NCBI GenBank assembly: GCA_944381275.1
Contig: CALWKO010000004.1
Span: forward strand, 5,100-69,099
DNA: 64,000 bases
Source of the DNA: an uncultured Clostridia bacterium
GTDB lineage: Bacteria > Bacillota > Clostridia > Christensenellales > UBA3700
Direction of reading: 5' to 3'
The position numbers were made by a program, and so were the translations under genes. How positions within the stretch are numbered: the stretch's first letter is position 1; each line of letters starts with the position of its first letter. Shown piece by piece: positions 7,010-46,784 of the stretch. Below the pieces are notes generated by a model. That model was not told where the DNA came from. It was given only the letters and a program-made list of their open reading frames with translations, and did no database searches.

Positions 7010-7861
7010 TCAATTATCGTTCAATCCGAACCGCCGTGACATGAGTATGTTCTTCCAATGCGTTTCACGCTCGATGATGTAATCGTTACCCAAATTCATA
7101 TTGCACACTTCCAATATGGAAAACCGAAAGTTTTCCGCATACTCCTTGCCGCGCTCGCTGAGCAGCCGCTTTAACTCAACGTTGCCGCCGTGTCCGCTCT
7201 CCGCGTACGCCGCCCATCTCTGCCATATGCACTCTTCGCCGTACGCGCTGCCCACATACTGCCTGCCCGTATGCGCGTCCGTTATCAAATATACTCCCTT
7301 CACATTGGAAAGCGCCGTCTTCCATGAGCTTATCCCCTCTTTCACGATCGTACGCAACAGCTCGTAATCTAATTCTACTTTGTCAAAGCCGGGGAAATCA
7401 CGCACCGACACTTTGTTTTCCAAAAGGCTAGCCAAATACATATCGCGCGGAGGCATGCCTCCGTCGGAAGGCATCATCTCTAAATTCAAATACGAATGGC
7501 GGAAGTTGCGATGAAAATATATCACCGCCCTGCCTATCAAGTCCTTCTGCACGTCCGCAAGGCGCGTTTCGTACTTCCAGCCCGTCCAGCCGCCCCTCTC
7601 GATTTGCTTGGGCGGCACGGATAAAACTTTATACACGCCCGCGAACATCCACTTATCCCTGTCCATATATGCGAGCGAGATCACATATTTGCGCCCGAAA
7701 TTCTTATTCGTCTGACACTCCTGCCACTCGGTGAACTCCTCCTGACCCAGAAGCAATTTTTTATACGGACGCATCTTATCGCTTCCGCCCGTGGCAAGGT
7801 GCACTTTGTAATCCCCGTACTCTTCGGCGGTAATGCCCAAAATTTGCGTGAGTTTAATCAT
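7010..7861 (-). CDS. GIY-YIG nuclease family protein with an unassigned N-terminal domain
   Basis: The C-terminal module is KGVYLITD..GRQYVGSAYG...RW..YA.SGHGGNVEL...ERETHWKN. The ATG overlaps the upstream ADH stop by 4 nt. Confidence 0.8.
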   Translation of the reverse strand: MIKLTQILGITAEEYGDYKVHLATGGSDKMRPYKKLLLGQEEFTEWQECQTNKNFGRKYVISLAYMDRDKWMFAGVYKVLSVPPKQIERGGWTGWKYETRLADVQKDLIGRAVIYFHRNFRHSYLNLEMMPSDGGMPPRDMYLASLLENKVSVRDFPGFDKVELDYELLRTIVKEGISSWKTALSNVKGVYLITDAHTGRQYVGSAYGEECIWQRWAAYAESGHGGNVELKRLLSERGKEYAENFRFSILEVCNMNLGNDYIIERETHWKNILMSRRFGLNDN

Positions 7862-10704: not shown

Positions 10705-10734
10705 GGGTAGCGGATTATCCGCTACCCTTTTTTT
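10705..10734 (+). terminator. intrinsic terminator of the permease gene
   Basis: Stem GGGTAGCGG / CCGCTACCC with a 4-5 nt loop, followed by T7. Confidence 0.8.
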
Positions 10735-10912: not shown

Positions 10913-12070
10913 CTACCTGAAATTCTCGTACTCATCGAGCAGCTCCTGCGAGATGCTGGGCGGGATCTTATCGAACGCTTTTTCGAACATGTCGCGGGTG
11001 AGGGGGATGGGGTTGGTGGAGCCGGCGGCTTGCAGTTTTTCCAGGGCGAGGCGGCAGGCTTCTTCTATTATGCCGCACAAATCGGCGGCGGAATAGTAGG
11101 CGGTCTGCGGCACTTTTGTGCCCATAGCCGTTTCCTTATATATAACGCCCTTGCTCATTGCGAGCACGTCCGCGAGGGTGACGCCGTCCAAAGCGATGCC
11201 CTTGAGCTTGCTTTCGATGATGGCGCGCTTTGCCTCTTCGTCGGGCGGGGTGACGTGGATGAGGTGGGAAAAACGCTTGTAGCGCAGATATGCCGGGTCG
11301 ATGACGTCGGGGCGGTTGGTGGCGGCTATCATGATGCGCTTGCTGCCGTCCACGCCAAAGCCGTTTATACGCTGCAAAAGCTCTGTGGTGACGGCGGCTT
11401 TGTAGTCCTTGGTGTCCTTGTCGCGGCGGGAGAAGATGGATTCGCACTCGTCAACGAACAGGATGGCGCCGTCCGGGCAGGCGTCCAGCTCCTGGAATAT
11501 CTGCTTTACCGCCTGCTCCGATTCGCCCACATACGATTTGAAGATATCCGCGGGGGTGACGATGAACAGGGGCAGATTCATGGCGTTTGCTATGGCTTCG
11601 GCAAACATGGTCTTGCCCGTGCCGGGCGCGCCGTACATGAGCATGCCCAAGCCGCCCTCCAGCTTGTAATACTTCAAGATTTCGGGATTTTGCGCCATGA
11701 ACATAAAGCTCTTGACCAGCTTTTTCACGTTGTCTAAGCCCTTGACGTCGTCGAAGGTGGTATCGGGCACGCGGCTCTTTATGACCGAGCCGTAACTTGC
11801 CGCCATGTCGCTGAGGCGCCTGAAGTAGTCCTTGTACTTCTTCACCTCGTCCTCGTCCGTGACGCGCTGGGAGAGGGTGTTGGCGATTTGAGCCGCACGC
11901 GAATATTCCGAGCGCAGCTTTGCCTTCACCTCGTCGGCTATCTTATTCCTGTCCTTCTTGCCCGCGAGCAGCTGACGAATCCTGTCAGTAGTGGCGTTGA
12001 AATCGCGCTCCAAAACCTCTACGGAATCTTCTTTGTCTTCTGACTTTTTTATTTTACCTATTCCTGCCAT
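10913..12070 (-). CDS. classic-clade AAA ATPase, Vps4/katanin/spastin-like, with a helical N-terminal (MIT-like?) region
   Basis: Walker A is MYGAPGTGKT and Walker B is ILFVDECE. The second region of homology is AATNRPDVIDPAYLRYKRFSHLIHVTPPD. The pre-ATPase motif F(D)DVKGLDNVKKL is present. The N-terminal ~100 aa are predicted helical. This is the last gene of the operon. Confidence 0.9.
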   Translation of the reverse strand: MAGIGKIKKSEDKEDSVEVLERDFNATTDRIRQLLAGKKDRNKIADEVKAKLRSEYSRAAQIANTLSQRVTDEDEVKKYKDYFRRLSDMAASYGSVIKSRVPDTTFDDVKGLDNVKKLVKSFMFMAQNPEILKYYKLEGGLGMLMYGAPGTGKTMFAEAIANAMNLPLFIVTPADIFKSYVGESEQAVKQIFQELDACPDGAILFVDECESIFSRRDKDTKDYKAAVTTELLQRINGFGVDGSKRIMIAATNRPDVIDPAYLRYKRFSHLIHVTPPDEEAKRAIIESKLKGIALDGVTLADVLAMSKGVIYKETAMGTKVPQTAYYSAADLCGIIEEACRLALEKLQAAGSTNPIPLTRDMFEKAFDKIPPSISQELLDEYENFR

Positions 12071-12084
12071 AATGCTTTCTCCGA

Positions 12085-12846
12085 TCAGGCGATGTCATCT
12101 ATGCCGCTTACGCCGCCCGACGTACCTGCGGTGCTTGCCGCGGCGGAAGCGGTCGCTGCGGGAGCGGAGCCCCCTCCTCTCTTCGCCTTTAATTCTGCCA
12201 CGGCTTGATCGATGAGCGCCTGCACGGGGCTGGGCGCGGCGGGAGCGCCGCTTGCCGCCGCCTTGCCGCTCATCTTGGCTTGGCGCTTCATCTGGCGCTT
12301 TCTCGCCCTGGCGGTGGAACGCTGCATGGATTCGGATACAGAACGCATTGCCTCAGCCATGTTCTGCGCCATCTTGGAGTAGTTCATGACCTCCTTGAAC
12401 ACGGTGATGATGGAGTTTACCGTATTCCTGTTCGCCTTCCTCATCTTTCTGCTGCGGCGCAGACGCGCGAAAAAGCCCATGGGCTGTTCGGTGAGGAATT
12501 CCGCGACCTGCATATTGAAGTTGAGCGCACTCTTCACCACACCCATCGCCTTTTGAATGGTGAGGATGGCTTCCTGCGAGGCGGTCATGACCTTGATGGT
12601 CTCCTGCATTTGCACTGCCATCTCTAAAAACATGACCATCATATGAGTAAGGTAGTGGTCCTCGCCGTAATCCAGAGTGGTCTCCGCCACCTGCATGGCG
12701 AGCGTTTTCACCTGCTCGTCGTAAGCCTCCCTCTGCTCTTGACAGAGCTTTTTTTGCCTGTCTATCTTTATGTTGCTTGCAATGGCGGCGGCCTGACTGT
12801 TTTCTTCTTCCGTCAGCCTTTCCTCTTCACTATGAAAACGTGACAT
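12085..12846 (-). CDS. helical protein, candidate ESCRT-III/Snf7/PspA-superfamily member
   Basis: The sequence is all-helical and Met/Ala/Gln-rich (NYSKMAQNMAEAMRSVSESMQRS), followed by a basic patch and an Ala/Ser/Gly linker. The terminal amphipathic helix is VQALIDQAVAELKAKR, with an acidic end GIDDIA. It lies 14 nt upstream of the AAA gene. Confidence 0.7.
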   Translation of the reverse strand: MSRFHSEEERLTEEENSQAAAIASNIKIDRQKKLCQEQREAYDEQVKTLAMQVAETTLDYGEDHYLTHMMVMFLEMAVQMQETIKVMTASQEAILTIQKAMGVVKSALNFNMQVAEFLTEQPMGFFARLRRSRKMRKANRNTVNSIITVFKEVMNYSKMAQNMAEAMRSVSESMQRSTARARKRQMKRQAKMSGKAAASGAPAAPSPVQALIDQAVAELKAKRGGGSAPAATASAAASTAGTSGGVSGIDDIA

Positions 12847-12858
12847 TGTTTTCCTCCT

Positions 12859-15800
12859 TTATTTGGTTACATATTTTTTCACGGCTTCGGCGAGGTTATC
12901 CCTCTCCGCCTCCGCATTGTTTACCCACTCGTGAGCGTACACGGCGTGCATGTTCCAGCCGCGCTCCTTTAAGATGTTGAAATACCTCATGTTGTAATCG
13001 AGGTAATTATAGTTTTTCTTGGTGGCGGTTTCGCACCAAATTCCCAGCTGCGCCCTCTTTAAATCGGGCGAGAGCACGGCGACGGGGATCCTGATCGACC
13101 CCTTGGTAACGCCGTAACCCACCACTATCCTGTCCTTGCTTATCCCCAGCGACTGCACGTAATCGGCGACGCTCGTGATAAAGCCCCTGCCGGGATTTGA
13201 GGACACGAATTGCGCCGCGCCGTCCTTGTTGAACAGTTCCGCCTTTACCATGTAATCGTGGATATACGCCACGTTTGCGCCGGTTATCTCGTAAGCGTGA
13301 ACGGAGTGCACGAGCGTGACGCTCGATTGTGCGCGCGTGACCGCCACGTTGAAGATGCACTTGCCCAGCTTGTCGCGGTTGAGCTGACCGAAGGCGTTCG
13401 TCACCCTGCCCTCCGGCGTTCTGCCGTAGGTGAGGGAGAGGATGAGATGCGCCGTTTCCTGCCCCTGGACGGTTTCGATCGTCTTGAAGAATATGAGTTT
13501 TTCGGGGACGTCGTCGAACTTGGAAAGCGCCGTATTTATCTTTGCATACAGTTCCTTGTTGGCGGAAACGAGCCGCTTTATCCGCTCTATCTGTTTTTCA
13601 CCGAAGGCAACCACGCCCGCCGATTGCGAGAGCGTGCCCGCTTTTTCATCGTAATAGCGGTCAAAATGCTCTTCCAGCAGTTCGACGACCGCCCTTGCCT
13701 CCTTCTCGTTCACGCCGCCGTCGCAATACCCGTCGACGTATACGTCCTTAAATCCCAGCCCTTCGTCCTTGGGCAAGGGCGCGGGGAAGGTGCGCATATG
13801 CGGATAGAACTGCTCTTGCGAAAATGCGATGAGCGATTCCGTCTTGCTCCTGTAATGGCAGAGCAGCTCCTCGGCGTGGAACGCCTGGTTGCGCAGGGCG
13901 AGAGTAAGGGCGGAGAGCTCGGGTTCGAGCACCATGGTTTCGGTGCCGTCGTCGGCTACAACGCGCCTTTCGTACTGTGCAACAAGGTGCTTGATGGGCG
14001 GCATCTGCCACTCGTCGCCCACTATCACGCACTGCTTGGACCTGAACAATACGGGCAGCAGACAGACGGGTTCCAGCTGGCTGGCTTCGTCCACTATCAC
14101 CACGTCGAAGTTTTCGTACTCTTCCGGCCGGAAGAGCACGGCGGCGGTGGAGGGGGTGATGATAAAGCACTTTTTCAGCTTTAATATGGCGCGGGCGTAC
14201 TTTTTGAATATCGAGCGCAGGGTGGCGGAAGGGTCGCGCTCTGCGTGCACAAAGGCAAAGTCGGGATCGTCGGGATCTATTTGCTCCATGCACTTGCGCT
14301 CGATGACGGCGGCGTTTGCCCTGAACAATTTCTCCTCCGCCCCGGCGAGCGCGTTCAGCTTGCTCTCCACCTTTTTGCCCAAGCCGTTTCGCCTTGCTCC
14401 CATGCCGCGCATCACCCCTTCCAGCGCAAGTCCGTAGAAGGAGTGCTCGAATATGTCGGGGATATTTCCCGCGGCAGACCCTTCCTCAATTTCTTTGAAG
14501 AAGGCGCGCAGCGGCTCCGCGCCCGCTATCTTCCCGTAACCGAGAGCGGCGGAGATCAAGTCCCTGTTCTTAGCTTCACGCATAAAGATGTCCATATCCC
14601 CCATGGTGACGGTGAATACGCGGGAATAGTGATTTTCGTAATAATTCTTGCCGAAGGCGCGCAGGCGGACGAGCAGCTCCTTGAGCTCGTCTTTTATGCG
14701 GGAGGGGGCTTGCTGCAGGGCGCAGAACCTGTTGTGCTTTTCCTCTAAACTCATCACCTTGACAGAGGGCAGGGAGAACATCCTGCGCACGGCGAGCAGA
14801 GAGCGGGCGAAATTCACCTCTCCGCCGCTGCCCTCAATGTTCAGCTTGCGGCGCGCCTTTTCCGCCTCGAATTTGAGCTTGGCAAAGGCGAACTCCGCCT
14901 CGCAGGAGAGCCTTAGCTCGCGCACGGTCAGCTTTGCGCGCTCTTCTTCATCTATGTGCGCGGCTTCTGCCAGGGCGAGGACGGCGGAGCCGTACAGCTT
15001 GGCATCCTCCGCCAAAGCGGCGAACGGTACGCCCCTGTCCGTCATCTTCTTTACTGTGGCAAGGCATTGCGCGTCCTTATCTTCCGCCTGCTTGCCCAGC
15101 AGTCTGCTCAGCAGGCTCATATTCTTTTTAACTCTCTCCCCGCACTCGTGGGCGGCGAGCACCTTGCCCGCTGCCAGCACCAGCTCGCGGAAGGAGACGT
15201 CCGTCAAAAAGCTGAATTTGCGAATATCTTCGGCGGCTTTTTTGCCCTTGAAGTCGAAAAGACTCGGCTTTTCTCCGCCTTCTATGTATTTTGCCAGCAC
15301 CCTGCCCGCCTGCACTATCTCCTCGTAATTTTCCTTGCACGCTTCCTTTTTAAACACCTTGCATGCGGAATAGAGGAGCTCGCCGCGCTTTTCTTCGTTT
15401 TCCTCTATCTGCGCAACGAGCGCGAGCCTGTCGTCCAGCTCCTTCTCCCTAATGGGTTTGCCGTCCGCGCCGAACAATATATCGCCGCATTCGGCGAGCG
15501 TTTTTACCCTGCCTACGGTAATATCGTCCAAAAGTGAGGGCGGGCAGAGCGTTGCCGCCCCTTTCATCTCGTCCAAATCCGCGCCATTTATCTCGCGCCT
15601 GTGACGGGAGAGCGCGTAATAATCGTCAAGGGCTCTTTCCGGGTCGGAAAAATCCATATTTGCGGCGACTATCTTTTCGAACTCGTACTTGCTCAAATCA
15701 GAACGCATTAGCTCGAAGACGTCGTAGAGGGCAAAGCCGCCTTCCGCCTCCTCCGCGCCCCTGAAGTAGAGGCTTATTTTGGGCATGAGCTCTTCCGCTT

Positions 15801-17367
15801 TTGCCGCCAAGCCGGAGTACTCCTTATACGCTCCTTCCCAATCCGTCCCCCTGCCTATGCCCAGCCACGGGCTTTTTGCCAAAGGGTGCGCTCCGCCGTC
15901 GGTGAGGCGGAGGAAGTATTCCGCCGCCTGCCTGACCGCGTTATACATAAGGCGGTATTGCTCTGCGCCGAGCGCGGCAGCCTGCTCCGGAAGGAGGAAT
16001 TTCACAAGCGGCAGATCTTCCTTGAGGAAGACGTTGAGCGCGTCGTAATAAGTGCCGCCAACTATCCCCTCGCCCGTAAACGTCTTTTCGTAATAGTCGG
16101 CGAGGAAGGCGGTGGCGGAGGTTATCTCCGCAAAGGCGGCCTCGCGGGAGCGCTCATGCTTTTTGTCGAAAGTGTAACTCTTGCGCGCCTTGACCAGCTC
16201 GCCCAAGTGCTTTTTTACGGCGGAGGGGTTCATCTTTGCCGTCTGCGCCTCTGTTTCAAAGTCCATGAGCATGGCGAACTTGCGCAGCTCCTCGGGCAGT
16301 TTTGCGTTCACTTCGCTCAAAGCCGAGAGCTTTTTTGAAGCGAGAATGACCTTCTTCCCCTGCGCCATGAGGGTGGCTATCATGTTGGCTATGGTGAGCG
16401 TTTTGCCCGTGCCGGGCGGACCCTTGATGATGAGCGATTCGCCGTTCACGGCGCGGCGGATCATGTTCTCCTGCGCGCTGTCGTAAGGGAGCACGAAGTC
16501 GGGCACGATGTCCCCGTCCGTCCCCTCTTGTGGCGCTCCCTCGGTAAATATCTTCTTTACCAGGGGGTGAGCGTATATCTTGTCACGATTGCGCTTGATG
16601 TCGTAATACATGCATATGTCGTTGTGATTGTATTGCGCAATGGCGATGACGTCCTTGTCTAAGCTGAACACGGTATCTGCCTCTATGTCCCCTCTGCGGC
16701 AGCTTTCCGCATACTTTTCCGCCGCCGCAAAGTAAGCCGTGCCGTCCCCCAGCGCCTGCATATCGATGGGGTCGTCGAAAGCGCCCGTCCCGTTAGGATG
16801 GGGAAAGCCGTCTGTCGTTTCCGGCGCGAGCACTTGGCGCATTTTGTGGATGAGGCAAGGGTTGAAGTATGCCTCGTCGTCCACAAACTCGATATACACG
16901 GGCTTGGTGGCGGTACTGCCTATCAGTCTGATGGGGAAGATGAGCAGGGGCGAAGTCACTTCCTTCACCTCGTCGCGCGTGACGTTCACCTTCCACCTTA
17001 GCGCGCCTATGCTCAAAAACAGGGGGTTGTTGCCCTTTAAGTTGAGCTCCTTGTAGGCGGCGGTGATAAAGGCGTTCAGCTTTGCCGCGTCCTTGGCGCC
17101 GCCGCCGTCTGCCCAGTCGAAGTCGTTTATCTTCCTGCCCACCATCTGGTCGCCGGAGAGGGAGCTGCCGCGCAGTACCGTATTGCCCGGCTTGCCAATC
17201 CTTTCCCTGATTATATCCAGCGCGTACTTTGCAAGGTCGGAGTGGAGATAGTGCGAAAGATAGTAGGTGTCCCCCGCGTCACCCGCATTCAAGTCTATCA
17301 GCTTGTTCTTCGTACCTTCGTTTATATGAAGAAGTTCTTCTATAAACGGTTCCAAATAGTCCTGCAT
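12859..17367 (-). CDS. SF1 Upf1-like helicase (DUF4011-type N-terminus, AAA_11/AAA_12 core) with a C-terminal restriction-endonuclease-like/DUF3320-like region
   Basis: It has NPLFLSIGALRW...SPLLIFPIRL, Walker A IIKGPPGTGKT and Walker B VVIVDEASQ. Further helicase motifs are VGDEWQMPP, CHYRSKTESLIAFS, TVQGQETAHLILSL and NVAVTRAQ. The tail is LGIWCET...ILKERGWNMHAVYAHEW. Confidence 0.9.
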   Translation of the reverse strand: MQDYLEPFIEELLHINEGTKNKLIDLNAGDAGDTYYLSHYLHSDLAKYALDIIRERIGKPGNTVLRGSSLSGDQMVGRKINDFDWADGGGAKDAAKLNAFITAAYKELNLKGNNPLFLSIGALRWKVNVTRDEVKEVTSPLLIFPIRLIGSTATKPVYIEFVDDEAYFNPCLIHKMRQVLAPETTDGFPHPNGTGAFDDPIDMQALGDGTAYFAAAEKYAESCRRGDIEADTVFSLDKDVIAIAQYNHNDICMYYDIKRNRDKIYAHPLVKKIFTEGAPQEGTDGDIVPDFVLPYDSAQENMIRRAVNGESLIIKGPPGTGKTLTIANMIATLMAQGKKVILASKKLSALSEVNAKLPEELRKFAMLMDFETEAQTAKMNPSAVKKHLGELVKARKSYTFDKKHERSREAAFAEITSATAFLADYYEKTFTGEGIVGGTYYDALNVFLKEDLPLVKFLLPEQAAALGAEQYRLMYNAVRQAAEYFLRLTDGGAHPLAKSPWLGIGRGTDWEGAYKEYSGLAAKAEELMPKISLYFRGAEEAEGGFALYDVFELMRSDLSKYEFEKIVAANMDFSDPERALDDYYALSRHRREINGADLDEMKGAATLCPPSLLDDITVGRVKTLAECGDILFGADGKPIREKELDDRLALVAQIEENEEKRGELLYSACKVFKKEACKENYEEIVQAGRVLAKYIEGGEKPSLFDFKGKKAAEDIRKFSFLTDVSFRELVLAAGKVLAAHECGERVKKNMSLLSRLLGKQAEDKDAQCLATVKKMTDRGVPFAALAEDAKLYGSAVLALAEAAHIDEEERAKLTVRELRLSCEAEFAFAKLKFEAEKARRKLNIEGSGGEVNFARSLLAVRRMFSLPSVKVMSLEEKHNRFCALQQAPSRIKDELKELLVRLRAFGKNYYENHYSRVFTVTMGDMDIFMREAKNRDLISAALGYGKIAGAEPLRAFFKEIEEGSAAGNIPDIFEHSFYGLALEGVMRGMGARRNGLGKKVESKLNALAGAEEKLFRANAAVIERKCMEQIDPDDPDFAFVHAERDPSATLRSIFKKYARAILKLKKCFIITPSTAAVLFRPEEYENFDVVIVDEASQLEPVCLLPVLFRSKQCVIVGDEWQMPPIKHLVAQYERRVVADDGTETMVLEPELSALTLALRNQAFHAEELLCHYRSKTESLIAFSQEQFYPHMRTFPAPLPKDEGLGFKDVYVDGYCDGGVNEKEARAVVELLEEHFDRYYDEKAGTLSQSAGVVAFGEKQIERIKRLVSANKELYAKINTALSKFDDVPEKLIFFKTIETVQGQETAHLILSLTYGRTPEGRVTNAFGQLNRDKLGKCIFNVAVTRAQSSVTLVHSVHAYEITGANVAYIHDYMVKAELFNKDGAAQFVSSNPGRGFITSVADYVQSLGISKDRIVVGYGVTKGSIRIPVAVLSPDLKRAQLGIWCETATKKNYNYLDYNMRYFNILKERGWNMHAVYAHEWVNNAEAERDNLAEAVKKYVTK

Positions 17368-17376
17368 ATCTCCTCC

Positions 17377-19278
17377 TTACTCGGATATATTCAAATATTT
17401 TTTGCAATCATTTGCAAAGCCGCATGCGTCCGTCTCCATTATCTGCACGCGGTAAGCCCAATAATCGCCGATGTTCGTATAGCTGCCCCTGTTGTAAGTC
17501 CAGCTCTCCACCCTGCCGGCGGTGACGCCCAGCTCTTCCCACATCCACGGCTGCCAGCCGTTTTTGGACGCGTGCGCCTGAAGGGCGTGCATGCTCTCGT
17601 GAACGGTGATGTCGGCAGCTTCGTCCAGCAGCTCCGCCGCGCTGTTTTTAAAGAGTATCTCCCTGCCGTCCTTGCAGCATACGCCGATTGCCCTATCGTA
17701 CTCCTTTCCCAAAAAGCAAAAGTCGTCGTGAAACTGCACGTCGGGCACGATCCCCGTGCCCATCAGCTGCATTACGGCGCGAGTGGCGGCGGTGATCGCC
17801 TCCCTCTTTTCGCTCACGTCCTTTTTCTCCCACAGCGTCCTTCTGTTTTGGCAGTTGTAGAAGTACTCTATTATCTTAGCGCACTTTTCCCACAGGGAGA
17901 TCCTCTTTTCGACTATCTCCCTTATCGCCTCGCGGCTGTCTTGAGGCAGGCAGCCGTAATCGAAGGGCAGCTTGCCGCCCAGCTTTTGCTCCGCCTGAGA
18001 GATGAAGTCGCCCCAATCGCACGGGAGCAGATATTCCTGCTTTTCCGCCTTGCGCAAAAAGACGAACGCGCTCCTGCTCCTGCCCTCGTCGCACAGCCAG
18101 TCTAGAGCGCTCTTCCAGCCCCTTCCTCTCCTGTGCTCCCTAAGCGCTAAGTTTATGCCGACATAGCCCATAAAGGCGTATTTTTCGGGCAGGCTCTCCC
18201 CTTCGCCGAGCATTCCTTCCTGCCTGAAAATATCCTCGGCAAACTCGCGCGAAGGCAGGGGCAGGCGCCTTAATTGCGCGGCTCCGCCGCCGGTGCGGTA
18301 TATCTCCGCGTCGCCGCTTTCGTCCAATATTATCGCCGCTCTGCCGCCGGCGGCGTAAGAGGACGCCGCCTTAATCACGCCAAGCTTGTTTGCGCCCGTG
18401 TATCTGCCGAAGTCGGTGATGAACACGTGGGCGCCCGCCTGCGCAAAGCGGGCGAATATGCCGCTTAAATCGAGCTCGTCCTTGCCCGTGAACTTGTCCG
18501 CTCCCACTTCAAGTATAGTCCCCTTCAAGCAGTGCACGGCGGCCAGCTCCGCTTCGTCTATAAACGGGGTGTTGAGCACTATCGCCGCGCAGACGGACGA
18601 TAAGTCCGCTTCCGGGAAGAGGGGAAAGCTCTCCCACTCGGTGACGCCGCGCAGACTGCGCGCTTCCTTGATGAGCTCTTCTTCTTCCCTTCTCCTGATC
18701 CCTTCGGCGCACTTGCGGGCAAAGTCCGCCGCGCCGTTTAATTCCGCGATCACCGCGCCCTTTACGTCGATAAACTCCACTCCCTTGTTGAACAGCGGAT
18801 CGGGGACGCTCATATCGGCTATGGCTTGCGCCTTTTCTTCGAATATCCGCTCCACCTCCGCGCACTCCGCCTTAGACGAGGTCATGGGGGAGCCGTCGGA
18901 CGAGCGCACGCGCGCGGCTTGCATGGGGGCGTCGCTTATTATCTCTCCTATGCTCTCCGCCAGCTTGGCAACGCTTAAAATTATCCTCTCGGTGTTGGCA
19001 AAGCCCTTGGCGCGGGCGGCGGGAGCGGCGCTTTCCGCAAAGTCCTGTATCTCCTCTTCCTTTTGAAGGCTGCACTTTTCCTGCAGATATTCCAAAAGCA
19101 GGCGCTTTGCCCTTATGCGCCAAAGCAGGGATAGCGCCCTGTCCTTGTTCTTTTCGTAGACGTACTCGTCCTCCGCCGCGGCGGCGAGCGCGCTTTCCTG
19201 CCGCTTGAGCTCACAAACGTCGATGAGGCGGAAGTACGCCTTGTTTGCTTCGTCCAATATGTCCGTTACGCTGCGCAT
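17377..19278 (-). CDS. HExxH metallopeptidase-like protein with a helical N-domain and a degenerate AAA-like middle (paralog 2)
   Basis: HESMH is encoded at 17587-17601, with a downstream QIMETDA. The protein is clearly paralogous to the upstream gene along its full length. AGGAGGGG RBS is present. Confidence 0.85.
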   Translation of the reverse strand: MRSVTDILDEANKAYFRLIDVCELKRQESALAAAAEDEYVYEKNKDRALSLLWRIRAKRLLLEYLQEKCSLQKEEEIQDFAESAAPAARAKGFANTERIILSVAKLAESIGEIISDAPMQAARVRSSDGSPMTSSKAECAEVERIFEEKAQAIADMSVPDPLFNKGVEFIDVKGAVIAELNGAADFARKCAEGIRRREEEELIKEARSLRGVTEWESFPLFPEADLSSVCAAIVLNTPFIDEAELAAVHCLKGTILEVGADKFTGKDELDLSGIFARFAQAGAHVFITDFGRYTGANKLGVIKAASSYAAGGRAAIILDESGDAEIYRTGGGAAQLRRLPLPSREFAEDIFRQEGMLGEGESLPEKYAFMGYVGINLALREHRRGRGWKSALDWLCDEGRSRSAFVFLRKAEKQEYLLPCDWGDFISQAEQKLGGKLPFDYGCLPQDSREAIREIVEKRISLWEKCAKIIEYFYNCQNRRTLWEKKDVSEKREAITAATRAVMQLMGTGIVPDVQFHDDFCFLGKEYDRAIGVCCKDGREILFKNSAAELLDEAADITVHESMHALQAHASKNGWQPWMWEELGVTAGRVESWTYNRGSYTNIGDYWAYRVQIMETDACGFANDCKKYLNISE

Positions 19279-19287
19279 CTTCCCCTC

Positions 19288-21213
19288 CTAATCCAAGTCG
19301 ATCGTGTGCCAAACGTCCTTTACGCCGCGCGTGCAGTCGTAGGCAAACGCCTCCGCGTCCGCCTCCAGCACCTGATTGCGGTATTTGTTGTAAGGTTCGT
19401 CTATCTTGTGGCCGTAGTTGAGAGTCCACTCCTCCACCCTGGAAAAAGTCACACCCGCGTCGCGGTACATCCACTCGCTCCAGCCCTCGGTTTTGGCTTG
19501 ATATTGCAGCGCGTGCATGCACTCGTGGGCGATCACCCCGGCGACGTATTCCGGATCGCTTTTAAGCAAGCCGTTCCTGTACATTATCACCTGCCCGCCG
19601 TTGCAGCACATCCCTTCCGCCTTTTTTGCGCCGGGGATGGAATCGTAAAATTCCACCCGTCCCTTCACCTTTACGCCCATGGCGCTCATCAAAAGGCGGG
19701 TAGCGAGGCTCACCCTGTCCTGCTTTTCCTCTATGCTCAGCATTCCCCATACGGAGAAGTCCGCGCCCGCGCAGCAGCAATATGTCACCAGCATGCCGCA
19801 CCGCTGATAAAAGGTTACGGGGGCGTTCATTATCTTTTGTATATTCCCCTTGTCCACCTCCGCTATGCCGTCGTAGTTGAACTCGGATTTTGCCGCGGGA
19901 GCTTTGCCGGGGTCGGAATAATCCCCCCAGCCGCTGTCTAAAAGCTGACTCTGCGTGGGCAGCTCCTTTAAATATTTTTCCGCGCGCTCCGCCCTGCCGC
20001 GCACATGCGCGGTTACGACCTTTCTCCAATCAATGCCGCGCGCGCGGGCGCGCACCGCCATATTCAGCCCCGCATAGCCCATAAACGGCAGATATTCGCG
20101 CATAAAGCGCATATCCTCGGCGCTGTCTTCTATCATGCCGCGCGCGCGAAGGAACTCCTTTACGTCGATAAAGCCGGGCATGGTGAGGTAGGTAAAGCCT
20201 ATGTCCTCCGCGCCGACGGCGTGCGCCGCCCGCGTGTAGAGCTCGCGATTGCCGCTGCTATCCACGATAAACGCCCTATTGCCGCCCTTGCCGTATTCCG
20301 TGCACAGGCGGAAGATCTCCTCCTCGTTTTCGCCGCCGTAACCGTTCAGCCCGGTGACCATGACCGCGGCTTTTTCGCGCAGGAATATTTCAAAGGTCTT
20401 CTTCAAGCCCTCCTCGCTCCTGCCGGCGAGCAAATCGCCGCTCAGCTCGTATATCGGCCCCTTGCTGTTTTGCACGATAAACAGCTCCGCTTCGTCTTGG
20501 AAGGGGGTGCACAAAAACATCGTGTTTGCCTGTGAAGCGTCTATAAGCGCGGTATATTCGCAATACTTCCACTCGGTGGTTTCGCGGATGTCGCGCAAGC
20601 CGGTAATGATGTCCTTACCCCGCTTGCACTCCAGCTCGAAGGCGCACTTTTCCGCAAACACCCTCACCTTTTTCAGCTCGCGCAATATCTCCGCCTTTAC
20701 GTCGGGGAATTTCACGCCCTTGTTGAAGAGGGGGGAAGGAAAGGCGATTGCCTCTATCTGCTTTTCCTTTTGAGCAAACGCCCTCTCTGCCTCGCGGCAC
20801 ACTTCTTCACTTTCCGCAACCCTCTTCCACTCGCGGCTGCGCACCTTGCAGGCTATCTCGTCGGCGTCCTTCATGACGTCGTTCACCCGCGCGGCGCACT
20901 CCGCCAAGGCGGATAATATGAGGGCGGTTTTTTCGTAGCCCTTCCCCTTGGCAAGGGAGGCTTTTTCTTTGGCAAAGTCAATGAGCGCGGCGGCGTCCTC
21001 GCCGTCGTACCCCTCCTCGAAGTAGATCAAGGCGAGCCTTTTTGCGGTTATGCGCCACATGAGCGATTCCCCGCGCTCCCTGTTTTCGGACGAAAGCCAG
21101 CTCTGCTTTATGAGAGCCTTTACTTCCCTCTCCGCCCCGCCGAGCTCTTCGGCGTTTACGGAGAAGTAGTATACGGTGTTCGCCCGCTCGAGTATGTCCT
21201 TTGCCGTTTCCAT
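19288..21213 (-). CDS. HExxH metallopeptidase-like protein with a helical N-domain and a degenerate AAA-like middle (paralog 1)
   Basis: HECMH is encoded at 19513-19527, with a downstream QVLEADA. It shares N-terminal (DIL..AN..Y....L.WRI.AKRL), middle and C-terminal blocks with 17377..19278. Confidence 0.85.
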   Translation of the reverse strand: METAKDILERANTVYYFSVNAEELGGAEREVKALIKQSWLSSENRERGESLMWRITAKRLALIYFEEGYDGEDAAALIDFAKEKASLAKGKGYEKTALILSALAECAARVNDVMKDADEIACKVRSREWKRVAESEEVCREAERAFAQKEKQIEAIAFPSPLFNKGVKFPDVKAEILRELKKVRVFAEKCAFELECKRGKDIITGLRDIRETTEWKYCEYTALIDASQANTMFLCTPFQDEAELFIVQNSKGPIYELSGDLLAGRSEEGLKKTFEIFLREKAAVMVTGLNGYGGENEEEIFRLCTEYGKGGNRAFIVDSSGNRELYTRAAHAVGAEDIGFTYLTMPGFIDVKEFLRARGMIEDSAEDMRFMREYLPFMGYAGLNMAVRARARGIDWRKVVTAHVRGRAERAEKYLKELPTQSQLLDSGWGDYSDPGKAPAAKSEFNYDGIAEVDKGNIQKIMNAPVTFYQRCGMLVTYCCCAGADFSVWGMLSIEEKQDRVSLATRLLMSAMGVKVKGRVEFYDSIPGAKKAEGMCCNGGQVIMYRNGLLKSDPEYVAGVIAHECMHALQYQAKTEGWSEWMYRDAGVTFSRVEEWTLNYGHKIDEPYNKYRNQVLEADAEAFAYDCTRGVKDVWHTIDLD

Positions 21214-21216
21214 GCC

Positions 21217-22725
21217 TTACATGTCGTCGTCGGAGAAGGGCTTGGCGCCGCGGCGCAGCTTCTCTTCTTCCTCTTCTTCCGCTTCAAGCGCCGTATCGGC
21301 GTCCCCGGTGAGGGCGGCGGTCTCCCTGTCGAACTCGTCTTCTTGCAGCTTCAAGTCCTCTGCCGACACGGTTTCCTTTTCCTCCACGCGGTAGCCGTCC
21401 ATCGCCTCGTACAGCTTGTCGACGTTGATGACGAACTCCTTGCTTATATTCTCTTCCGCCACTATCTCCGCCTGCGCGCTGATAAATCCGTCGATGAACC
21501 TCTCCATCTCCGCATTGGTCAAACTGCCGGTGACGAGCTGCTGCAAGCTGTCTACGCCGATCCTCTCCATTATCTTGGCGAACAGGACGACGTTGATGCT
21601 GCACGAATTTATAAATGCCACTATGCCCTTTACCGTACGCAGCTTTTTCCTCGTCGCCTGAGATTGGTTCCTCATCCTGCGCAGCATTCTTTGCGCCTCG
21701 AGGCTGCTCTTTTGCAAGTCGGCGATCTCTTCCTTTATGCTGTTGTATCGCCTTATCGCCCTTTGCTTTTCCGCCGAGCCGGGCGCCAATTCGCCGTTCT
21801 TGTTCTTTAAAACTATATCCTGCTTTTCCTTTTCCAGTTCCGCCGTTTCTTCGTCGCAGCGCTTTATGTCCTGCTCGTATTCGAAGATATATTTGTTGAT
21901 GTTATCGTTAAGCATATTTTCCTGCGCCGCGATTATCGCCTGCGTGGAAGCCATGCTCTCGCGCAAATACGTTGCGCCCTTGACTATCCACGTCACATTG
22001 GTCATGGTGACGGACTTCATTGCCTCTTCAAAGGAGATGTTGTAGGTATTCAAATCGTCTTTTGAGGGCTTTTTGCCTATCTTGGTGATGGAACGCCACT
22101 GCCTTGCCTGCCTGAGAGCCTCTTCCAGGACGGCTATGTGCCTGCTTTCGCACGAGCTCGTCTTGCAGCACTGCACCCAATCGTAAATGGCGTTCACCAC
22201 GTCGTTAGCTTTCTTGAGCGCGTCCGCGGAGGTGTTATCCCACACTTCCTCTATCGTGCCGCGGAGTTCGCCGAGCAGCTCCTGCGACCTTTGAAAGTTG
22301 GCTATGCTTGCGGGCGTGAGCGCAACTTTTGCGGCGGCGTCGGCAGCCTTGTCGCAGAAATCCAAATATTTGATCACTTCACCTTTAAAGTCCATTTTGC
22401 CCTCCTTTATCTTGGGATTTTTTACTTCAGACAAGAGTTTTTCCCGTTTTTCCTTGTAAGTATTTAGCTTTTTTGCCGCTTTGGGCTCGCTTAATTTCAC
22501 CGCCAGGGAGATAAGGTCCTGTATGGCGTCCTTCTCCAGCTTGAAATCGTCGTTCATTCCCCTGCCGGCGAGCGCGTAGACGTCGTCCACCAGCACGTCG
22601 GAAAGCTCCTGACAGCCGTCGCTGCCGTAGCCGTTTGCGATGAGGTCGCAAAAGTCGTCGTCAAAGGACACTTCGTTGGCTTGAAGCACCTCGGCTATCC
22701 TGCGGATTTTTTCCTTTTTATCCAT
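21217..22725 (-). CDS. coiled-coil protein with a Snf7-like C-terminal half and an acidic tail
   Basis: GGAGG RBS is present and the start overlaps the upstream stop (TAATG). It has long heptad-like helices. The C-terminus reads ...MERFIDGFISAQAEIVAEENISKEF...EDEFDRE...EEEEEEKLRRGAKPFSDDDM. Confidence 0.8.
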   Translation of the reverse strand: MDKKEKIRRIAEVLQANEVSFDDDFCDLIANGYGSDGCQELSDVLVDDVYALAGRGMNDDFKLEKDAIQDLISLAVKLSEPKAAKKLNTYKEKREKLLSEVKNPKIKEGKMDFKGEVIKYLDFCDKAADAAAKVALTPASIANFQRSQELLGELRGTIEEVWDNTSADALKKANDVVNAIYDWVQCCKTSSCESRHIAVLEEALRQARQWRSITKIGKKPSKDDLNTYNISFEEAMKSVTMTNVTWIVKGATYLRESMASTQAIIAAQENMLNDNINKYIFEYEQDIKRCDEETAELEKEKQDIVLKNKNGELAPGSAEKQRAIRRYNSIKEEIADLQKSSLEAQRMLRRMRNQSQATRKKLRTVKGIVAFINSCSINVVLFAKIMERIGVDSLQQLVTGSLTNAEMERFIDGFISAQAEIVAEENISKEFVINVDKLYEAMDGYRVEEKETVSAEDLKLQEDEFDRETAALTGDADTALEAEEEEEEKLRRGAKPFSDDDM

Positions 22726-23849
22726 TAAAATCCTCCGTTTTGCACATATTCTGCCAATTTCTTTACGGCATCATTCATGGTGCCTATTTTGGATTTGCAC
22801 ATATAAACGTCGTCGTCGAGGAAGGTGAGGTCTTCGCCCGCGCCGCCGTCGATTATCGTCTTTACCGCGTCGTAACGTGAGGAAGTGAGCGCCTTTTGTA
22901 TCCTGCCCAAGGCGAACTTGCCGAAAAAGCGGTGACCGCCCTTTTCGTTGAAGAAGAACAGCCAATAGTCCGCTCCGTCCATCACTTCACCGTCTATGTA
23001 TTCGTTGAATCCCCTCTCGTTTTTAAGGGCGGTGAAGGTTTCGTCCATGCTCACCTTGCCGCTGTCCTCCGCCGCCTGAGCCGCCGCGACGAAAAGCCCC
23101 CTTCTGATCAGCTTGATGACGGTGTAACTGCCCACTCTCTTTTCTTTAAGCTCCTTCAGCTCGCCGCCGCTCAGCCGCATCACGCCGAAAAGCGGTGCGT
23201 TTTGGCGGGCAAAGCAGGACATCAGCTTGGAAAAAGCCTGCTCTACCGCGCTCTGCTTTATGCCGCTCACGAGCGGACGGGGGAATTCCACGCCCAGCCT
23301 TTCCTTGATCATCGCCAGGTTGTTTTCGTAATTGAACTTATCGCTGCTTGTGAGCTCTTCCGGCGCGGAGGCGAGCATTTTGAGCAGATACCCAGCCGCC
23401 TTTATGCGAATGGCGCGGAAGTCGTACACTCCCTTCACCCCTTCCTTTGCCACCTTGAGCTCGGAGGAAGCGTAGCACACCGCGCTGTAATAGGCGTATG
23501 CCGCGCGGCAGCGCGCCGCCTCGCTCTTGTTTACCTCGGTATAGTCCTTGTCGTAATAATACCCCAGGCGGACGACCGCTTCCGGATTGCCCATGGCGGC
23601 GGCTTCGCGGGTGAACTCTATCGCCTTTTCCAGCTGCTCGCGCACCCTTTCCGCTTCGCCGCGGGACGCCCCTTCCAGCCAGTTGTGGTAGCAGCATTCC
23701 GCCAGCTTGAAGAGCTGTTCGTTATCCGCGGTAATCTCAAAGTCGGACATAACTCCGCCCAGCTTTGCCTTGCAGTCGGGACACGCCCATTCCCCGTTAT
23801 ACAGTTCAAGGGGCTGTTCTATCGTATGCTTACATTTTTCGCAAATCAT
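22725..23849 (-). CDS. zinc-ribbon plus Sel1/TPR-like repeat protein
   Basis: The N-terminus is CEKC...x17...CPDC. A Sel1-like repeat follows: AAMGNPEAVVRLGYYYDKDY...EAARCRAAYAYYSAV. Confidence 0.8.
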   Translation of the reverse strand: MICEKCKHTIEQPLELYNGEWACPDCKAKLGGVMSDFEITADNEQLFKLAECCYHNWLEGASRGEAERVREQLEKAIEFTREAAAMGNPEAVVRLGYYYDKDYTEVNKSEAARCRAAYAYYSAVCYASSELKVAKEGVKGVYDFRAIRIKAAGYLLKMLASAPEELTSSDKFNYENNLAMIKERLGVEFPRPLVSGIKQSAVEQAFSKLMSCFARQNAPLFGVMRLSGGELKELKEKRVGSYTVIKLIRRGLFVAAAQAAEDSGKVSMDETFTALKNERGFNEYIDGEVMDGADYWLFFFNEKGGHRFFGKFALGRIQKALTSSRYDAVKTIIDGGAGEDLTFLDDDVYMCKSKIGTMNDAVKKLAEYVQNGGF

Positions 23850-23861
23850 ATTGCCTCCTTA

Positions 23862-26800
23862 TCACGCCTGCTCTTCTTCCTGCGCGGCGGCTATGGTAAA
23901 GTCCTTTCTTGCGCTGCCCGCGTCCACGGCGTAGTTATCGCTCGCGGAGCTTGCTGTCACATAGTACTCGCCCGCCGCGGAGGGCATGCCCTCGAGCGCC
24001 TGTCCTTCCTTGTTATAATAGGTATAGACGATAAAGGCTTCCGCGCCCTCGTCGCTCACCTCGGCGGAGGGAGCCTGCGGCTCGCCCGATTCGATAAACT
24101 CCTCGCCCCGCCAAGTGACGGTGACGGTCTTTGCCGTGATGTCGTATTCGCACTCCGCTCCTATCGCCGTATAGTTGGCGCTGCCTATGTTCGCCGTTAC
24201 GGTGTAATGCCCTGCGTCGGCGCCGAAGCCGCCGTAAGTTATATCCAAATCGTCCATATCGTCGGCGCTTGCAAGATTGTTTACGCTTTCAACTTTGGGA
24301 TACTGCGCCTCGCCGCTGTATTCAAAGGACGTTTCGCCGTCCCAGACGAGGGTGACTTCGCGCTTTGCTATGGTGAAGGCTGCGCTCTCGCCGCTTGTTA
24401 TCGTGTAGTTATCGTTGCCCAAAATCGCGGTCGTGACGTAATCGCCCGCGTCCGAGGCGCCGCCGTTGACGCGGTAAGTCAGATCCAGGGAATTAAGGCT
24501 GTCCCCTTCCGCAAGATTTTCCGCGCTCTCCACGACTATGCTGTTTCTCGTGCCGTCGTAGGTGAAGGTGCGCTCCTCCTGCCACACGAGCGTTACGCCG
24601 CGCTTTTCTATGGTGAACGAGGCGCTTGCGCCGCTCGTTATCGTGTAGTTATCGCTGCCCAAAACCGCACTCGCCGTGTACTCGCCCGCGTCCGAGGCGG
24701 AGTTGTTGAGGCAGGATATGTTTAAATCGGCAAGCTCTTCTCCGCTTGCAAGATTTTCTGCACTCACAACGGTTATGCTCTTTTCAGTGCCGTCGTAGGT
24801 GAAGGTGCGCTCCTCCTGCCACACGAGCGTTACACCGCGCCTTTCTATGATGAAGAGCGCACTGCCGCCGCCCGCTATCATGTAGTTGACATTGTCTGAG
24901 CCCAACCTTGCGGTCATCGTGTAATTGCCCGCGTTCACGGCGGTGCCTTCGGCAACGCCGGTATATAAATGCAAATCGCTCATATCGTCGCCTTCGGCAA
25001 GATTTTCCGCACGGAGCACGCTCAAGCCCTTATCGGTGCCGTCATAGATGAAGTTGCACTCCTCCTGCCACACGAGCGTTACGCCGCGGCGGGAGATGGA
25101 GAAGGAGTATGTGTCGTAAGCGGCGTTGAGCTCGTAGTTTTCCGCATCCAGCGTGACGGTCACCGTGTAACCGCTGCCGGCGTTAACCTGCCCTCCGCCG
25201 TAGACAAGGCTGCCGAGCAGCATCTGCTCGTCCTCATCGTTCAGCGCGCCGGGTATCTGCGTGACCGCGGGGTGCTGCTCCCGCCCGTTGTATACAAAGC
25301 TGTTGGTATCCCAATATGTGGTCGCCACCGTGCGCTTGCTTATTTCGTAAGTATAGGTCTGCGCGTCGCTGAAGACGTAGTTGCCCTCGGGCAAGGTGAC
25401 TTCCACCGTGTGTTCGCCCGCATTTACGCCGCCGCCCGATATTATCGAGTAGGAGAGGGAGCGGATAATGCTCGTTTCCTCGCCCGTAACTTCCCCGTTT
25501 ATGCTCTGCACGGCGGGGTTTTGGACGGAGCCGTTATATGAATAACTAACCCCTTCGCGCCAATTGACCGTTATGGGGCGGGCGGTTATCGTCACCTGCG
25601 CGGTGGGATTGGTCAGGATATAATTGCCGCTTGCCAAAGTTGCGCGCACGGTGTACTGCCCCGCGTTTACGGGATTTCCGCTCAAGGTGTATTCAAGAGC
25701 TCCGTCTTCCCCTATGCCCTGTATCGTGACGGCGGGATATTGCGCCGAGCCGTTATATACGAAGGATAGGGTCGAATCCCACTGCGCGCTCACCTCGGCG
25801 CGAGCCACGGTAAAACTCACGCTCGCGGTGGCGGCGGATATTGAGTAGTAATCGCCCGAATCGCTCGTAAGATATACGGATGCGGTATAATTGCCCGCAT
25901 TCCTCACCGCAGCGCCCGACATGGCGTACTGTATCTCGTTGCCGTCCACTTCCGCGCCTTCCTCGGGGGCGCAGATCGCCGTTTGACTGAATCCCGTATA
26001 TTCGCTAGGCAAGGTCCACTCGAAATCCACCGTCTTTTTAGCCACGTTGACGTAGACCGCCGCCGTGGTTTCCCCTTGCAAGGAGGTTATCTCGGGAGCG
26101 GACGCGGTCACCGTGACAGAGTAGTTCCCGCTGTTGAACGGGGCGAGGAGGCCCAGGTCCACGCTCTGCCCGCTCTCCGCCGAAGTTATCGCCGCGCCCT
26201 GCCAATCGTAGGCAAGGCCGAAGCCCTCCGCGGGAGCGGTGACGTCGGCGCCGAGCACCACCTCATCGCCGTAGGTGAAGGAAGTGCCGCCCGTGATCGT
26301 TATCACGCTGTCGTTCACCTTCCACTGAGGGAATACGTATATCTCGTTAGAAGAGGTAGACGCCGAGCCGAGGAGCTGACTGAACGGCGTCCTCATGTTC
26401 AGCTGCGTTCCGCCCTCATACCAGGTATAATTCCAGCTCTCGACCGAAAGTCCCTCGCGCGCGGGAATGCTCTCGAGCAGCTCGTCGGCGGTGGAGGGCA
26501 CGGCGTAGCGATATTCCAGCGTCTGCCCTTCCAGCTCCGTATTCTTATATGTGAGCGCCGTTTCGTACACCTCGTCGTTGTCCTCGCCGATGTACACCCT
26601 GTACACCCTTTCAAACGACGCTTGCAGCGACATACCCTCGGTTATCCGCATATCGGTCATCGCCGCGCCGTAATCGTTCACGGGGCCGGAGAAGATGTAT
26701 CCGCCGAAGTTGACATCGCACCAATACAGGTCGGCAGCCGAGTTCTTATCCGAGTGCAGCATATAGGGGAAGTCCTCTTCGTACTCGCTTATGTCGAAGA

Positions 26801-29473: not shown

Positions 29474-29477
29474 AAGC

Positions 29478-32306: not shown

Positions 32307-32314
32307 AATCCACC

Positions 32315-34468: not shown

Positions 34469-34499
34469 TTTTATTCCCCCTATTATTTATACAATATAC

Positions 34500-44474: not shown

Positions 44475-44552
44475 GAAAAAACCTCCCGAGGTTGCTATTC
44501 AAGCATATTCCCGAGAGGTGAAAAATATTACCGTTTTGCGCAAGCGGAATAA

Positions 44553-46009: not shown

Positions 46010-46021
46010 TTCCTTCTCCCG

Positions 46022-46783: not shown

Positions 46784-46784
46784 A

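Follow-up and report, generated by a model that had tools for sequence, protein, structure and literature searches.

We analysed a stretch of 64,000 nucleotides (the window) from contig CALWKO010000004.1 of an uncultured Clostridia bacterium of the Christensenellales, and within it a pair of adjacent genes coding for a small helical protein (g10) and an AAA ATPase (g11). A first-pass annotation had described the two as a bacterial ESCRT-III/Vps4-like pair. Both open reading frames (ORFs) and their coordinates were confirmed on the minus strand, and the translations contained every peptide quoted in that annotation (FDDVKGLDNVK, GAPGTGKT, ILFVDECE, ATNRPDVIDPAYLRYKRF, EVKAKLRSEYSRAAQIANTL...KKYKDYFRRLSDMAASY, NYSKMAQNMAEAMRSVSESMQRS and ALIDQAVAELKAKR). 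The two genes and their parts are as follows.

12085..12846, minus strand: g10, ORF of 253 aa with an ATG start
12271..12828, minus strand: helical core of g10, three long helices (aa 7-60, 65-119 and 125-192) in an AlphaFold2 (AF2) model, helix pLDDT (predicted local distance difference test) 70-84
12424..12474, minus strand: basic patch of g10, FFAR-(W/L)-(K/R)-R-x-R-K-M-R-K-A-x-R-N-N, at the start of helix 3 (aa 125-141), from the family alignment
12178..12228, minus strand: short amphipathic helix of g10 (aa 207-223, ALIDQAVAELKAKRG) in the AF2 model, with low-complexity linkers on both sides
12088..12111, minus strand: acidic-hydrophobic C-terminal tail of g10 (aa 246-253, VSGIDDIA), consensus G-G-V-x-D-I-(D/S)-D-I-(L/V)-COOH
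10913..12070, minus strand: g11, ORF of 385 aa with an ATG start
11792..12022, minus strand: N-terminal three-helix bundle of g11 (aa 17-93; helices 17-35, 46-69 and 73-93) in the AF2 model
11252..11644, minus strand: AAA core of g11 (Pfam PF00004 match, aa 143-273), columns mostly invariant or near-invariant in 28 homologues

Fourteen nucleotides separate the stop codon of g10 (TGA, 12085-12087) from the ATG of g11 (12070). Shine-Dalgarno sequences precede both genes (AGGAGG at 12853-12858 for g10, GGAG at 12079-12082 for g11), and in a related locus (L001) the two genes overlap by 1 nt. The description of a 253-aa all-helical protein encoded 14 nt upstream of the AAA gene was borne out by the ORF and by an all-helical AF2 model. 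Among 21 related loci, g10 was present in all 21, the ATPase gene lay directly downstream in 20, and a gene for a DUF4011 helicase lay directly upstream in 19. A 2.7-kb locus (L016) ends within g10, and in another (L021), counted among the 20, g11 is split by a frameshift and the locus starts too near g10 to show the helicase. The order helicase–g10–AAA was kept in every related locus reaching all three genes (18 of 21, the ATPase gene being frameshifted in one of the 18) and was broken in none. By these observations the two genes are coupled in translation and strictly syntenic, and the feature is real and strongly conserved. What had been missed was the operon context: the pair is not a two-gene system of its own, it is the 3' end of a run of 11 co-oriented minus-strand genes spanning 10913..34468 (23.5 kb), in which all gaps are 14 nt or shorter or the genes overlap.

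g11 is a single-domain classic AAA+ ATPase, as had been proposed from its motifs (Pfam AAA, 3.2e-32). All motifs of the classic core were found, namely GAPGTGKT, FVDE, ATNRP, R263/R266 and K-S-Y-V-G; K153 belongs to Walker A, D207/E208 to Walker B, Y180-V181-G182 to pore loop 1, N252 to sensor-1, and R263/R266 to the second region of homology (SRH). With Walker A/B, sensor-1, arginine fingers and the aromatic pore loop intact, the enzyme is active-looking. Its best pairwise and profile scores were obtained with Cdc48/VAT D2 (127 bits for VAT D2 versus 96 bits for Vps4), and the alignment with VAT D2 ran without gaps through the SRH. NCBIfam models gave E-values of 1e-44 (CDC48), 2.5e-38 (PAN), 2.5e-35 (CdvC), 4e-34 (FtsH) and 1.8e-29 (IteA), all with scores far under the family cut-offs. 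For example, TIGR01243, the Cdc48 family, reached 153 bits where its cut-off is 803, and the match was confined to the D2 portion of the model. The two-residue SRH deletion of the meiotic clade (RR--RF), which is seen in Vps4, spastin, katanin and Msp1, was not found in the g11 family, which has LRYKRF instead and the SRH length of p97, PAN, FtsH and VAT. Vps4_C (PF09336) reached 17.6 bits on aa 338-384, under its cut-off of 21.3, and a precomputed PF09336 match was recorded in three g11 homologues (P0101, P0111 and P0122). In neighbour-joining (NJ) trees with 10 reference sequences checked with Pfam, and with few taxa and long branches, the g11 family came out as the sister of the Vps4/spastin/katanin/Msp1 clade in 49-97% of bootstraps, whatever the settings; no more than 15% placed it within the clade, and no more than 4% with Cdc48 D2. 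A grouping with FtsH/Cdc48-type proteins, named in the first-pass annotation as an outcome that would count against it, was not what these trees gave, because g11 was sister to the Vps4/katanin clade and almost never joined Cdc48 D2. The Vps4/katanin-type claim itself stood in part: the family is next to that clade in the NJ trees, mostly outside it, and does not carry the SRH deletion. Taken together, SRH length, tree position, sub-cut-off scores and the N-domain results described below lead us to regard g11, on sequence grounds, as a new classic-AAA lineage that is adjacent to the Vps4/katanin clade and not demonstrably within it.

The N-terminal bundle of g11 (~77 aa) stands directly before the AAA domain, as in Vps4, and is joined to it by a linker of ~12 aa. 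Mean pLDDT of the g11 model was 81.5, and 10-residue blocks over aa 21-90 averaged 90-95. Across 29 homologues, I31, D40, L52, R53, Y56, A60 and R69 of the N-domain were invariant. We also observed that aa 1-6, MAGIG(K/R), were near-invariant in these homologues, despite belonging to a low-confidence and otherwise variable segment before the bundle. Foldseek returned generic three-helix bundles only, MIT and BAG among them, all at E > 0.4; MIT domains ranked 15-41, amid BAG and designed bundles, and the CdvC MIT domain 2w2u aligned with template modelling (TM) scores of 0.43/0.59. Pfam MIT (PF04212) was not matched by g11 at E <= 1. Comparison with 4 MIT sequences by hhalign gave a probability of 0.9%, in a test of low power where the spastin-versus-Vps4 control reached just 13.5%. 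An MIT identity could not be assigned, since neither Foldseek nor hhalign separated MIT from BAG or designed three-helix bundles. Of the earlier remark that a helical N-terminus stands where Vps4 has its MIT domain, there remains a three-helix bundle of MIT size and position (pLDDT >90) which carries no MIT sequence signal.

g10 is basic (pI 9.5) and all-helical, and members of its family all have ~225-265 aa. The relatives found numbered 3 clusters in a word-indexed search and 22 in a profile search, and an exhaustive hidden Markov model (HMM) search across 1.84 billion representatives brought the number to 204, counted as clusters at 50% identity. g10 had no match in Pfam, NCBIfam, PADLOC or PDB sequences, and the family had none in Pfam and PDB. 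These searches indicate that g10 founds an orphan family. The AF2 model (pLDDT 65, predicted TM score 0.41) shows three long helices of 54, 55 and 68 aa (7-60, 65-119 and 125-192), one short helix (207-223) and a disordered tail. The turns between helices are conserved (YGEDHYLT, in the family YGEDxYLT, and QxxYG-FFAR). The basic patch that opens helix 3 was the top-conserved motif of the family, with G124, R128 and N141 invariant and their neighbours nearly so, and a second Lys/Arg-rich stretch was also conserved. The short helix was moderately conserved (PSxAxxxIxEIxKxRG). The C-terminal part of the family consists of Ala/Ser/Gly/Pro linkers followed by an extreme C-terminal Φ-(D/S)-D-Φ. A broader form, Φ-(D/S/E)-(D/G/N)-Φ, was found within about the last 5 residues of essentially all 49 aligned members, and the strict form in 35 of the 49; I249 and D251 were invariant in family alignment A3. 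The tail is of low complexity and disordered (pLDDT below 50). A disordered tail with a near-universal terminal motif is a typical layout for tethered docking or initiation. The first ~30 residues are acidic (MSRFHSEEERLTEEENSQ...) and showed the lowest conservation in the family alignment. Among the features remarked on in the first-pass annotation, the basic patch, the Ala/Ser/Gly linker and the short helix near the C-terminus are conserved in the family.

The remaining nine genes of the operon and the signals at its ends, from upstream to downstream, are listed below.

34612-34638: terminator-like hairpin closing the preceding carB (consensus match only)
34482..34509, minus strand: promoter-like site just upstream of g01 (consensus match only)
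32315..34468, minus strand: g01, 717 aa, Hsp70/actin-like; starts with NIGLDLGSDTLK and has an IGLDLGSDTLK phosphate-1 motif
29478..32318, minus strand: g02, 946 aa, SNF2 helicase similar to DrmD/BrxH/DpdE by profile matches
27770..29473, minus strand: g03, ORF of 567 aa without assigned function
23862..27773, minus strand: g04, 1303 aa, pI 4.1, with ~5 N-terminal transmembrane-like segments and MBG_3/MBG_2 domains
22725..23849, minus strand: g05, 374 aa, with an N-terminal CxxC...CxxC zinc ribbon (sequence motif)
21217..22725, minus strand: g06, ORF of 502 aa without assigned function
19288..21213 and 17377..19278, minus strand: g07 and g08, paralogues of ~640 aa each, with a C-terminal HExxHxxQ...ExD
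12859..17367, minus strand: g09, 1502 aa, DUF4011, UPF1-like superfamily 1 (SF1) helicase (AAA_11/AAA_12) and C-terminal MTES_1575 restriction-endonuclease-like (REase-like) domain (Pfam)
10705..10727, no strand assigned: terminator-like GC-rich hairpin with T-runs and a perfect 10-bp stem, between g11 and a convergent permease gene

Matches of g01 to HSP70/DnaK were sub-threshold (Pfam HSP70, 17.4 bits), and g01 had no PDB sequence match. g04 is membrane-anchored and probably surface-exposed, amid an operon of otherwise cytoplasmic enzymes. g07 and g08 are 32% identical to each other, and in an alignment of seven sequences (A8) H563, E564, H567, Q570, E617 and D619 were invariant in their family; together with weak Pfam matches to M48 and SprT this makes them putative minimal zinc metalloproteases. 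Two copies were found in the window and in L001-type loci and one in more distant loci. For g09, PADLOC reported PDC-S37 at 3e-111 and Hhe at 7e-53, and NCBIfam reported ProA at 6e-109 and Hhe at 1e-74, both NCBIfam matches being below cut-off. The operon is flanked by housekeeping genes, with carAB upstream and a convergent xanthine/uracil permease gene downstream, and the hairpin at 10705..10727 looks like a bidirectional terminator common to the operon and the permease gene.

Gene order extends well beyond the pair. The order g04-g05-g06-g07-g09-g10-g11 recurred, as far as the loci extend, in 18 other loci with an intact ATPase, and orthologues of g05 and g06 kept their order in L005-L019. 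Loci with conserved order came from Candidatus Borkfalkia, Christensenella, Christensenellaceae and other Clostridia metagenome-assembled genomes, and their flanking genes varied. The operon was also found in a metagenomic organism with a GC content of 34% (L019/L020, JGI metagenome contigs). Its genes have evolved at unequal rates. Across loci, identity to the window copy was 66-89% for g11, 40-66% for g09, 25-66% for g07, 27-82% for g05 and 22-48% for g10. In the GC 34% copies, the AAA protein was 66% identical to that of the window, g10 22%, and g05/g07 ~25-27%; within g11 itself, the AAA part was 73% and the N-domain 45% identical. Constraint thus lies on g11, the engine of the set, and diversification on the genes around it. 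Conflict systems commonly combine a conserved engine with partners that diversify. The spread of rates within one operon in L019/L020 was unusually large.

We propose that g10 and g11 are a dedicated module of an unfoldase and its substrate or adaptor, ending an 11-gene, likely nucleic-acid-targeting defence or conflict operon of gut Christensenellales, a reading to which we give about equal chances of being right and wrong. According to this proposal, g11 would assemble into a hexameric classic AAA+ translocase. Its three-helix N-domain would dock the C-terminal elements of g10, the short amphipathic helix and the terminal Φ-D-D-Φ-COOH, which are presented on long flexible linkers, and the Y-V-G pore loops would then thread g10, so that g10 assemblies might be dismantled or g10 stripped off its partners. 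As an outcome, the effectors of the operon (the DUF4011 helicase-nuclease, the HExxH proteins and the SNF2 helicase) may be switched or reset. The 14-nt coupling, the operon packing, the synteny, the active-looking ATPase, its N-domain, the g10 tail and the unequal rates argue for this proposal. Besides, defence-type neighbours are consistent with it: the PDC-S37/Hhe/ProA-like g09, the DrmD-like g02, and the IetA-like score of the AAA protein.

Several observations weigh against the proposal. The defence role we suggest is drawn from sub-threshold similarities and gene content; for example, NCBIfam ProA scored 365 bits against a cut-off of 1500 on g09, and IteA 103 against 510 on g11. PADLOC and NCBIfam recognised isolated components only and no complete known defence system, and the gene set was not found described in full-text literature searches; a known multi-gene defence system was rejected accordingly. 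The operon sits among housekeeping genes and has the GC content of its surroundings. IMG/VR, INPHARED phages and PLSDB plasmids yielded no relatives of g10, and IMG/VR no close relatives of g11; the best plasmid-borne relatives of g11 were Cdc48 or FtsH, with 26-33% identity. A mobile-element origin was discarded on these results, and the operon seems to have been passed down in a single lineage, a pattern not so typical for mobile defence islands. The basic helices of g10 could equally bind nucleic acid or membrane. Similarly, the g11 N-domain could bind another partner, e.g., the operon's Hsp70-like protein if the domain is BAG-like; BAG-like bundles bind Hsp70.

The reading from which the analysis started, that g10 is an ESCRT-III protein, rested on a segment resembling CHMP2A and on a C-terminal helix loosely fitting the MIM1 pattern. 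We found that neither g10 nor any of 21 relatives matched Snf7 or PspA in Pfam (E <= 1), that a PDB profile search with the g10 family matched nothing, and that no Snf7/PspA protein was among the 204 proteins returned by the exhaustive HMM search; nothing significant linked g10 to Snf7 (PF03357) or PspA_IM30 (PF04012), the two profiles that the first-pass annotation had proposed for comparison. No Foldseek match of g10 in the PDB had E < 1. PspA 7abk came first (E 1.4, TM 0.29/0.37), with BAR, ABC-transporter and gp41 helices ranking beside it, all of them non-significant matches between long helices. For hhalign, Snf7 and PspA reference sequences were validated by Pfam or by HMMs built from validated ones; shallow profiles held 5 Snf7 and 3 PspA sequences, and deep profiles 13 and 6, with 2 validated Vipp1 among the additions. 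At shallow depth g10 scored 24.6 with Snf7 (P 0.006), a value reached by 0 of 100 block shuffles, and the part of g10 aligned to the start of Snf7 alpha2 comprised its basic patch and helix 3, the same segment that had been likened to CHMP2A. This test was underpowered, because the known PspA-Snf7 relationship scored only 26.0 in it (7% probability). At greater depth the PspA-Snf7 control reached 63.5 (95.8% probability, P 6.6e-9, 182 columns), but the 49-sequence g10 profile fell to 21.0 with Snf7 (P 0.025; 8 of 60 shuffles reach 21.0), and scored 17.2 with PspA and 22.8 with a combined profile, over a different short region each time. The shallow signal was rejected, as deeper profiles lifted the control from 7% to 96% and g10 sank to noise. 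The strict MIM1 pattern (D/E)xxLxxRLxxL(K/R), which picks out CHMP2A, Vps2 and CHMP1A, occurred in 0 of 49 g10-family tails (last 90 residues). Likewise, an N-terminal amphipathic or basic membrane-binding segment (alpha0/ANCHR) was not seen in g10, whose N-terminus is acidic and variable. Membership of g10 in the ESCRT-III/PspA superfamily is not supported by these sequence comparisons, and of the proposed pair only the Vps4 half survives, in part. A relationship of g10 to ESCRT-III lying beyond the reach of sequence methods appears to us very improbable.

It is likewise very unlikely, in our view, that a highly diverged ESCRT-III/PspA member (g10) and a Vps4-type disassemblase (g11) remodel membranes together, perhaps with g04. 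The sister position of the AAA family, the MIT-sized and MIT-placed N-domain with MIT structures such as 2w2u among its matches, the ESCRT-III-like size and layout of g10 (basic helical core, linker, short helix, acidic tail), the shallow-profile score, the top rank of 7abk and the membrane protein encoded in the operon all fit that scenario, but it has to contend with the loss of signal in deep profiles, the profile, structure and motif results given above, an ATPase with neither the meiotic SRH deletion nor a Pfam MIT match, and neighbours that are helicases, a nuclease and proteases rather than membrane-stress genes. A different division of labour, in which g10 is not threaded and serves as an adaptor or regulator that recruits g11 to, or gates it towards, g09 or g07/g08, in the manner of SspB, Vta1 or p97 cofactors, would account equally well for the strict adjacency and the conserved docking-type tail. 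g10 was always located between g09 and g11, and its helical rod, which is long and conserved as are the turns in it, resembles a stable scaffold. Still, long disordered tails with a free terminus are also classic sites of translocation initiation, and the sequence holds nothing that tells an adaptor from a substrate; we consider this arrangement unlikely. We find it more doubtful still that g11 works mainly with g07/g08, as a split FtsH-like protease machine or an IetA-type antitoxin, with g10 as a co-expressed structural protein binding nucleic acid or membrane. The invariant HExxHxxQ...ExD of both paralogues, the match of PADLOC IetA to the AAA protein (3e-32), which covers part of the N-domain, and the basic character of g10 with its two Lys/Arg-rich stretches agree with such a role, for which IetAS and ietHAS offer a precedent, in that an AAA antitoxin acts there together with a toxin that is a protease and with a DrmD-like SNF2 helicase (PMC13069673). 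However, the IetA score is no better than those of generic Cdc48, PAN and FtsH models, the operon has no IetS-type subtilase, the protease call consists of a motif and sub-threshold Pfam matches, and it would remain unexplained why nothing in the family is more conserved than the tail motif of g10 and its place beside g11.

Returning to the substrate-or-adaptor and unfoldase module, a bolder version may be formulated, which we hold only tentatively and think unlikely to be correct as a whole: the 23.5-kb operon would be an undescribed multi-enzyme immune system in which a Vps4-sister unfoldase reads the Φ-D-D-Φ tail of a polymer- or scaffold-forming g10 through an MIT-like domain, as a convergent or diverged counterpart of Vps4/ESCRT-III. 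What appears to be new here is a partner family of orphan proteins together with an AAA lineage, both within an undescribed candidate conflict operon. Should the proposed mechanism hold, it would define a new classic-AAA lineage beside Vps4/katanin, with a bearing on the origin of MIT-type ATPases from Cdc48-like ancestors. The analysis also flags an uncharacterised 11-gene operon in the abundant and poorly studied gut Christensenellales, whose appearance is that of a defence system more than of bacterial ESCRT machinery.

Further observations concern the surroundings of the operon. An ORF of 1348 aa at 34848..38894 (minus strand) contains a complete carbamoyl-phosphate synthase large chain (CPSase and MGS domains) followed by a C-terminal DAP_epimerase domain (Pfam, 3.4e-63), and looks like a CarB-DapF fusion. 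At 7010..7861 (minus strand), outside the operon and past the permease gene and an alcohol dehydrogenase-like gene, there is an ORF of 283 aa whose C-terminal part is a GIY-YIG nuclease domain. Another long series of ORFs in one orientation occupies 43599..59870 (minus strand).

The operon was compared with the closest known systems. With Vps4/CdvC and ESCRT-III (CHMP, Snf7, CdvB) it shares an adjacent all-helical partner of ~250 aa whose core is basic, whose linkers are flexible and which has a short helix near the C-terminus and an acidic end, an ATPase family that is sister to the meiotic clade in NJ trees, and a plausible logic of docking a tail and then threading. In contrast to that system, g10 has no detectable Snf7/PspA homology or MIM1, and has three long helices and an acidic N-terminus; g11 has no Pfam MIT match, no SRH deletion and no beta-domain (Vps4_C 17.6 versus 21.3 bits), and the operon encodes helicases, a nuclease and proteases and is not a division or membrane-stress locus. 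The literature reports bacterial Vps4-like ATPases that have other partners, PspA-AAA+ pairs, and an archaeal protein of coiled-coil type whose gene lies upstream of cdvC (PMC11237479, PMC11188069). The last of these, a coiled-coil or helical-hairpin orphan, resembles g10 by description in lying immediately upstream of a Vps4-type ATPase and having no similarity to known families, but it is archaeal and located in a Cdv division locus beside a bona fide CdvB. Cdc48/VAT/p97 D2 gave the top pairwise and profile scores of g11, with ~30-35% identity and the same SRH length (RxxRF), whereas g11 has one AAA domain instead of two and a helical N-domain instead of a double-psi-barrel. g09 has the same DUF4011, UPF1-like SF1 and Vsr/REase-like architecture as Hhe/ProA/PDC-S37; however, those have been described as single-gene or small systems, whereas g09 is one of 11 co-oriented genes and scored under the equivalog cut-offs.

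The published ietHAS serves as a precedent for an assembly of this kind, since an AAA antitoxin is combined in it with a toxin of protease type and with an SNF2 helicase similar to DrmD (PMC13069673). IetAS/ietHAS and the operon have in common an AAA protein of ~375-385 aa with a helical N-region, which PADLOC IetA matched at 3e-32 in g11, and g02 and the putative HExxH proteases g07/g08 recall the helicase and protease of ietHAS. On the other hand, IteA scored 103 against a cut-off of 510, the operon has eight further genes, and the neighbour of the ATPase is the orphan g10 and not a protease. A subtilase (IetS-type) domain was found in none of the 11 operon genes; membership of g11 in IetA was rejected on this ground and for scores no better than those of generic AAA families. 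TRIP13/Pch2 and HORMA of CBASS offer a further parallel, in that a dedicated AAA+ remodeller is encoded beside a small non-enzymatic partner in an immune operon and resets the state of that partner; they differ from g11 and g10 in belonging to another AAA+ lineage (PADLOC TRIP13 just 9e-15 on g11) and in the partner being a HORMA protein, not a helical one. By analogy, the pair may work on the same principle as Vps4/ESCRT-III, TRIP13/HORMA and the IetA antitoxin, without demonstrable ESCRT-III ancestry. As it stands, the finding does not amount to a bacterial ESCRT-III/Vps4 system. If the proposed module is correct, it would add a dedicated AAA+ remodeller-partner switch to bacterial conflict systems, beside TRIP13-HORMA and IetA-IetS.

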